Virus record (IMG/VR): IMGVR_UViG_2648501223_000008
Length of the DNA stretch: 24,087 nucleotides
From: a virus
Lineage: Duplodnaviria; Heunggongvirae; Uroviricota; Caudoviricetes
Reading direction: 5' to 3' (one strand)
A program made the position numbers and the translations under genes. Shown here piece by piece: positions 6,371 through 6,885 of the stretch. Under the pieces are notes generated by a model, which had not been told where the DNA came from, did not search any database, and saw only the letters and a program-made list of their open reading frames with translations. The stretch's first letter is position 1, and every line of letters starts with the position of its first letter.

Positions 6371-6394
6371 AAAAAAACCGCCAATTTCTGGCGG
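6371..6394 (-). terminator. Rho-independent terminator of the lipoprotein gene
   Basis: minus strand ccgcca-gaaat-tggcgg followed by ttttttt (A7 at 6371-6377 on the plus strand); 9 bp after the stop codon. Confidence 0.65.
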
Positions 6395-6402
6395 CTTATA
6401 TA

Positions 6403-6885
6403 TTAATCATCATTAATATCTTTCATATTCAATTTGCAATTTTCGTAGGTCACTCCCGACTCGCCATTAACATTAACTCCAGCTCTGATATTCCCGTTTT
6501 CTTTTACATCTACAAAAAACTGGCCTCTTGGCATCTTGAACGCAAATGTAAAACCAACAGTATCTGAATCAAAATCATCATCTTTATATATTGGGATCAA
6601 AAATGTCATCGTCGCTGGTGATGCATTGTTTGCAAAATCAAATACACCTATACTTTTGCCGAATTCATAAGAAGCTTTTCTCAATATAATCGCACCGCTG
6701 GCAGAAGGGGATGGGCACGATATCCTCAGTTGTCTGAATCCATCTGTATCCAAGTCAACGTCATTATCTGCAGATGTTTTAACGTTACTAATAAATCGTG
6801 AAACAATCTCCTCATTTGTTAGTATTTTCGCCTGAGCACAGCAAGAGGTTAATATTGCAACCGTCATTAAAAATGGCTTTATCAC
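6403..6885 (-). CDS. Putative lipoprotein or secreted protein of unknown function
   Basis: 160 aa, GTG start with GGAG Shine-Dalgarno-like sequence; N-terminal signal peptide MIKPFLMTVAILTSCCAQA with possible lipobox LTSC; AT-rich relative to the flanking tail genes; sits where Mu-like phages carry baseplate genes. Confidence 0.55.
   Translation of the reverse strand: MIKPFLMTVAILTSCCAQAKILTNEEIVSRFISNVKTSADNDVDLDTDGFRQLRISCPSPSASGAIILRKASYEFGKSIGVFDFANNASPATMTFLIPIYKDDDFDSDTVGFTFAFKMPRGQFFVDVKENGNIRAGVNVNGESGVTYENCKLNMKDINDD

Follow-up and report, generated by a model that had tools for sequence, protein, structure and literature searches.

A predicted exported accessory protein encoded between the tape measure and N genes of phiP27-like temperate phages

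This study concerns a gene for a protein of 160 amino acids (aa) at positions 6403-6885 of IMG/VR virus record IMGVR_UViG_2648501223_000008 (Caudoviricetes), a stretch of 24,087 nucleotides (nt) that we refer to throughout as the window. Comparison with relatives indicates that this gene is dispensable, moron-like accessory cargo of the phiP27-like temperate phages, which combine an HK97-type head with a Mu-type contractile tail, and that its place is the slot between the genes for the tail tape measure protein and the Mu N-like DNA circularization protein.

Results

The 160-aa gene and its place in the tail module

The gene and the features that adjoin it are as follows.

6403-6885, minus strand: coding sequence of 160 aa with a GTG start, for an exported accessory protein of PHROG 5586 (open reading frame and translation)
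6829-6885, minus strand: signal peptide coding region, residues 1-19, MIKPFLMTVAILTSCCAQA (rule-based analysis)
6841-6852, minus strand: lipobox L12-C15, LTSC (rule-based analysis)
6368-6397, minus strand: intrinsic terminator, a 9-10 bp G+C-rich stem (6375-6397) and then a T-run (folding and shuffles)
6886-6952, minus strand: 67-nt spacer from the tape measure stop codon to the GTG (sigma-70 scans)
6953-8902, minus strand: tail tape measure gene, 649 aa, the upstream neighbour in the late operon (Pfam PhageMin_Tail, RefSeq annotation)
6326-6365, minus strand: what is left of the next gene, DNA circularization (Mu N-like), with a GGAG ribosome-binding site at 6362-6365 and the 31 nt of coding sequence that start with the ATG at 6356 (relatives)
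5558-6325, plus strand: IS1, 768 bp, with InsA at 5613-5888 and InsB at 5807-6310 (Pfam Zn_ribbon_InsA, HTH_Tnp_IS1, DDE_Tnp_IS1)

An earlier note on this DNA had placed the gene immediately downstream of the tape measure gene, and the PhageMin_Tail match and RefSeq annotation of 6953-8902 bear this out. The further claim that it closes the tail module is an artefact of an IS1-associated deletion; in the intact relatives FDAARGOS_944 (100% identical) and STEC309 the gene order is tape measure, 160-aa gene, N, baseplate and fibres. Similarity to intact relatives starts at window position 6326, within an annotated DNA circularization coding sequence; IS1 truncates this Mu N-like gene after 31 nt and marks the deletion of N, the baseplate genes and most of the fibre genes. 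Nor does IS1 abut the terminator of the 160-aa gene, as had been stated: the two are separated by 49 nt, which hold the ribosome-binding site and first 10 codons of the N gene. In the window, an intact copy of the gene persists in a prophage no longer able to build tails.

The intact relatives have the strong terminator (6368-6397) midway along the tail operon, immediately 5' of the N and baseplate genes, and late transcription must therefore either read through it by antitermination or restart beyond it.

Occurrence at the tape measure/N junction

The gene or a relative of it is present at the junction in FDAARGOS_944, STEC309 and phage vB_EcoM-720R4, and the junction is empty in the isolated phages phiP27, SfIV and ST64B. 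Escherichia coli A31 carries the same module with its tape measure and N genes just 15 nt apart, and the gaps at these empty junctions, A31 included, measure 15-33 nt. Over the 738 nt at the 3' end of the tape measure gene, the DNA of the window and that of phiP27 are 98% identical. Among 5426 complete E. coli genomes, 11 hold this gene, 101 hold a paralog and about 150 have an empty junction. The E. coli paralog, about 66% identical in DNA over the aligned part, occupies the identical junction in three settings: enterotoxigenic E. coli (ETEC) H10407, where its protein shows about 50% identity, the isolated phage vB_EcoM-720R4 and a plasmid-borne prophage of avian pathogenic E. coli (APEC). 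A scan of genome contigs returned only two loci, both with the Shigella configuration.

One IMG/VR relative (L018) has an IS1 variant, 91% identical, at 5229-5999 inside the 160-aa gene; the insertion produced a 9-bp target duplication at the equivalent of window 6776-6784 and left the downstream N gene intact. Since the gene is broken in this relative, its host can do without it. Protein fragments of 37, 43 and 120 aa from Shigella sonnei, found in the protein cluster, fit an IS1-interrupted gene.

The phages phiP27, SfIV and ST64B, the roughly 150 empty junctions and the homologs on phage-plasmids described below together argue that the gene is dispensable, horizontally mobile cargo and not a part of the baseplate. 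A conserved position inside the tail gene cluster would also be expected of a gene whose product builds or helps to assemble the Mu-like baseplate or tail; the gene is missing, however, from functional phages with this module, including phiP27 with its nearly identical tape measure 3' end, and homologs are found outside tail modules. Given that the product also has a predicted cleavable export signal, we rejected a structural role as so improbable that we regard it as excluded. Comparison with intact relatives of the tail module, run on this very point, leaves the gene outside the core baseplate components, since the three isolated phages do without it.

Where a relative is encoded in the IMG/VR loci, the tape measure and N genes flank it without exception (43 of 43). 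The most distant tail-module clades (L040-L055) have a protein that is 36-44% identical to that of the window, compared with 67-81% for the sheath and 78-82% for the tube. Because all 43 loci share the slot, even in clades of such low identity, the gene appears to be an old, fast-evolving resident of it, and its faster divergence than that of the sheath and tube is consistent with an arms-race gene.

Composition, selection and transcription signals

The gene is AT-rich, with a GTG start, a good ribosome-binding site and a strong terminator of its own, and in all of these respects the earlier description is upheld by the sequence and by folding. The ribosome-binding site, GGAG at 6894-6897 on the minus strand, was read from the sequence and stands 8 nt 5' of the GTG. 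The terminator hairpin (6375-6397) has a folding free energy (dG) of -13.6 kcal/mol and a z-score of -3.9, and none of 200 shuffles (0/200) folded equally well. The gene has a GC fraction of 0.369 overall and 0.311 at third codon positions (GC3); the tape measure gene has 0.521 and 0.551, respectively. Comparison with the Yersinia homolog yields a ratio of nonsynonymous to synonymous substitution (dN/dS) of 0.09, and comparison with the E. coli paralog one of 0.18, values for which synonymous sites are near saturation; on the strength of these ratios the open reading frame is read as a real gene under purifying selection. An identical coding sequence in the 100% identical relative is annotated as a 'hypothetical protein' (WP_000594909.1).

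Morons in the sense of Juhala and Hendrix are recognised, as summarised in PMC3594210, as extra DNA of deviant composition with its own terminator and its own promoter, from which the repressed prophage can express it. The 160-aa gene is extra DNA that is missing at the same site in close relatives, its composition is unlike that of the flanking genes (as is that of the H10407 paralog), and the hairpin and T-run provide it with a terminator of its own.

Export signal and lipobox

The N-terminus of the window protein comprises an n-region with K3, an 8-residue hydrophobic core and the sequence LTSC with Cys15, and a signal peptidase I (SPase I) site, AQA/K, is predicted after residue 19. Among its homologs there are five N-terminal types, corresponding to clades, which differ in sequence and all retain a basic n-region, a hydrophobic core and an A-x-A/K site. 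Export through a Sec signal peptide is thus well supported, and the signal peptide that had been proposed from the window alone emerges from the rule-based analysis in every clade.

The lipobox was assessed with a hand-written regular expression of the PROSITE PS51257 rules ([LVI][ASTVI][GAS]C, Cys at 15-35, K/R in the n-region). The window protein conforms to this pattern through FLMTVAILTSC, Cys15 and K3, with a signal peptide at the short limit. The motif L-[TI]-S-C-C is confined to the Shigella/E. coli/Yersinia clade, that is, the window clade and the Yersinia copy; the SPase I peptides of the four other clades are Cys-free, and their A/K site is aligned with AQA/K of the window protein. 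The lipobox cysteine is therefore conserved in one clade of five, and lipidation through Cys15 is possible for the Shigella/E. coli/Yersinia clade only. Of the earlier view of the protein as a lipoprotein, the LTSC lipobox stands as a match to the pattern as encoded, and its extension to the family does not, four of the five clades having none. The main correction to that view is that the apparent position of the gene and the 'lipoprotein' label both stem from one degraded copy.

In the Yersinia enterocolitica copy (L010, 7975-8003), an upstream ATG opens a short frame (MKKPIYLCL, then a stop) that is shifted by one base relative to the frame of the annotated start, and the signal peptide appears to be frameshifted. 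No tape measure gene is called upstream, where there is a gap between the genes at 6491 and 8001. This copy may belong to a decaying prophage; alternatively, the frameshift could be a sequencing error.

Protein family and predicted fold

The 160-aa protein matches PHROG 5586, annotated as function unknown, over its full length (E 1e-88), and the family is very small, with 19 matches among 1.84 billion representative proteins. At E <= 10 the protein has no match in Pfam, NCBIfam or PADLOC, and its PHROG matches are solely to families of function unknown; a Pfam search with all 17 family members gave no match, and a sequence search of the PDB with the family profile gave chance matches only (E > 0.4). 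The literature search returned nothing specific on the protein accessions, PHROG 5586, phage 720R4 or morons at the tape measure/N junction.

Homologs at 24-28% identity are encoded on phage-plasmid contigs, where they adjoin genes for IncFII repA, ParA/ParC-like proteins, toxin-antitoxin systems and CI-like repressors, and each has its own terminator. An AT-rich motif, TTATTT(T)AAATAAATATTTAAT, is conserved directly 5' of these homologs (L007 at about 690-735, L008 at about 2870-2915 and L009 at about 1995-2040). The motif may serve as an operator or promoter; scored with a simple sigma-70 matrix, it did not rise above chance. Three repeat proteins of 883-2363 aa (P0018, P0024 and P0025), with 8-11 units of the form 'CDSTATL...SASIC', match positions 40-107 of the family profile weakly, and these matches are probably compositional.

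An AlphaFold (AF2) model built from 17 sequences reached a predicted local distance difference test score (pLDDT) of 83.4 and a predicted template modelling score (pTM) of 0.76, and shows a helix at residues 24-41 followed by 8 strands, which we read as a small 8-stranded beta-barrel. A good model needed the distant family members, as AF2 with only 9 close sequences gave a pLDDT of 45. Two cysteines, C57 and C150, are invariant and lie in the mature protein, the predicted mass of which is about 15.5 kDa. In the model C57 falls after or at the end of the first strand and C150 within the last, and we infer a C57-C150 disulfide that would close the barrel.

Profiles do not place the protein in the MliC/PliC family of lysozyme inhibitors (PF09864), and no match with the SxSGAxY and YxxxTKG motifs in register was obtained: an hhalign comparison of the family profile with E. 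coli MliC, the sequence of which was confirmed as PF09864, aligned the signal peptide only (probability 3%), and neither the window protein nor the family members matched the Pfam PF09864 model. A 'SASGA' string that the protein shares with MliC/PliC/PhiA falls in a different part of the fold, and the fold match to them is no better than that to avidins or MoaF-like barrels.

Prophage surroundings

Window positions 2959-11885 are 99.98% identical to S. flexneri SFBU1023, with the insertion sequence (IS) junctions included. To the left of IS1 (5558-6325) lie a truncated IS3-family transposase gene and then a DUF4376 gene. Two further genes mark the fibre end of the prophage remnant.

2355-3998, plus strand: intact ipaH, 547 aa, with leucine-rich repeat (LRR) and NEL E3 ligase domains (Pfam)
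1371-2039, plus strand: S-adenosylmethionine (SAM)-dependent methyltransferase gene

The copy of ipaH in FDAARGOS_944 is frameshifted. Insertion sequences occupy 1-753, 4655-5557, 5558-6325 and 11683-12589 of the window, two being IS1 and two IS3-family elements (rve + HTH_21); one IS3-family copy is truncated by IS1, and the other adjoins a short tail-terminator open reading frame upstream of the sheath gene.

Discussion

Our analysis suggests a model in which the protein would work in the periplasm or envelope of the cell that carries the phage. A lipid anchor at Cys15 may hold it in the Shigella/E. coli/Yersinia clade, where an outer-membrane location would be expected because the +2 residue is Cys and not Asp; the proteins of the other clades would be soluble. 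From its place in the envelope the protein could bind a target in the periplasm or outer membrane, or a component of an incoming tail, so that the entry of other phages would be blocked through superinfection exclusion or through masking of the receptor or entry route, as with other tail-operon morons. We rank this envelope-acting exclusion or entry masking first among the possible mechanisms, tentatively and at somewhat less than even odds, on account of the precedent of a tail-operon moron (HK97 gp15), the rapid divergence of the gene and its placement among maintenance genes on phage-plasmids. Two results weigh against it: the 160-aa protein matches no exclusion family in Pfam, PHROG or PADLOC, and in the spacer at 6886-6952 a scan for the sigma-70 consensus found 0 sites, with a weight-matrix score no better than that of shuffles.

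The closest precedent is HK97 gp15, a moron beside the tape measure gene whose product is an exclusion protein (PMC3594210). Like the 160-aa gene, it is an extra tail-operon gene that is absent from close relatives, with deviant GC, its own terminator and an envelope-acting product, the last being our reading in the case of the window protein. The two differ in that gp15 is a small inner-membrane protein, whereas the window protein is predicted to be cleaved, exported and of barrel type at about 15.5 kDa. There is no sequence relation between them, and gp15 has its own promoter while none was detected for the window gene.

Other small exported phage proteins provide looser parallels. Cor (phi80/N15/HK022) and Llp (T5) are outer-membrane lipoproteins that block FhuA. 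They resemble the window protein in being small, phage-encoded and exported, and the latter has a PS51257-type lipobox as encoded; there is no sequence match to either, four of the five clades lack the lipobox, and the window protein is roughly twice the size of Cor and Llp. The comparison is by analogy only. Lambda Bor, T4 Sp and TP-J34 Ltp are likewise exported proteins of phages or prophages, and they alter the envelope of the host; the searches found no sequence similarity and no significant fold similarity of the window protein to any of the three.

The lack of a detectable promoter would sit well with a helper of the lytic cycle expressed from the late tail operon, which might mask a receptor or condition the envelope of the infected cell against loss of progeny on debris, or tune lysis. 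Llp has such an effect in T5, whose progeny it saves from loss on debris. The gene shares its strand with the tape measure gene, follows it after 67 nt and has a strong ribosome-binding site, and its late-operon position is kept in all 43 of the IMG/VR loci. Against this, the phage-plasmid homologs stand outside late operons and look like independent units, autonomous cassettes typically have a terminator directly 3' of the gene, as here, and phiP27, SfIV and ST64B do without the function. We place this explanation third and think it improbable.

Ranked second, and still doubtful, is a lysogenic conversion factor that contributes to host fitness: the barrel, periplasmic or lipid-anchored, would shield or alter the envelope in a way unrelated to phage exclusion. 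It might do so as an inhibitor of peptidoglycan hydrolases, following the logic of MliC/PliC/PhiA, or as a binder of small ligands of the calycin/avidin kind.

Within the favoured reading of a block to phage entry, a more specific scheme can be drawn, which we consider unlikely as it stands. PHROG 5586 would be a new periplasmic exclusion family, the barrel of which captures an incoming phiP27-like tape measure or N protein as it crosses the periplasm. Such a capture would explain the linkage of the gene to the tape measure/N junction, its joint divergence with that junction across five clades and the lipid anchor in one of them.

As things stand, this is an ordinary uncharacterised exported phage accessory protein. 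If it does prove to be a factor for host fitness, a dead Shigella prophage would have retained two cargo genes, this one and ipaH. Should it instead block phage entry, it would constitute a structurally new periplasmic exclusion factor in relatives of the Shiga toxin (Stx) phages and in Shigella prophage remnants, and would matter for phage therapy against, and phage typing of, Shigella and E. coli.
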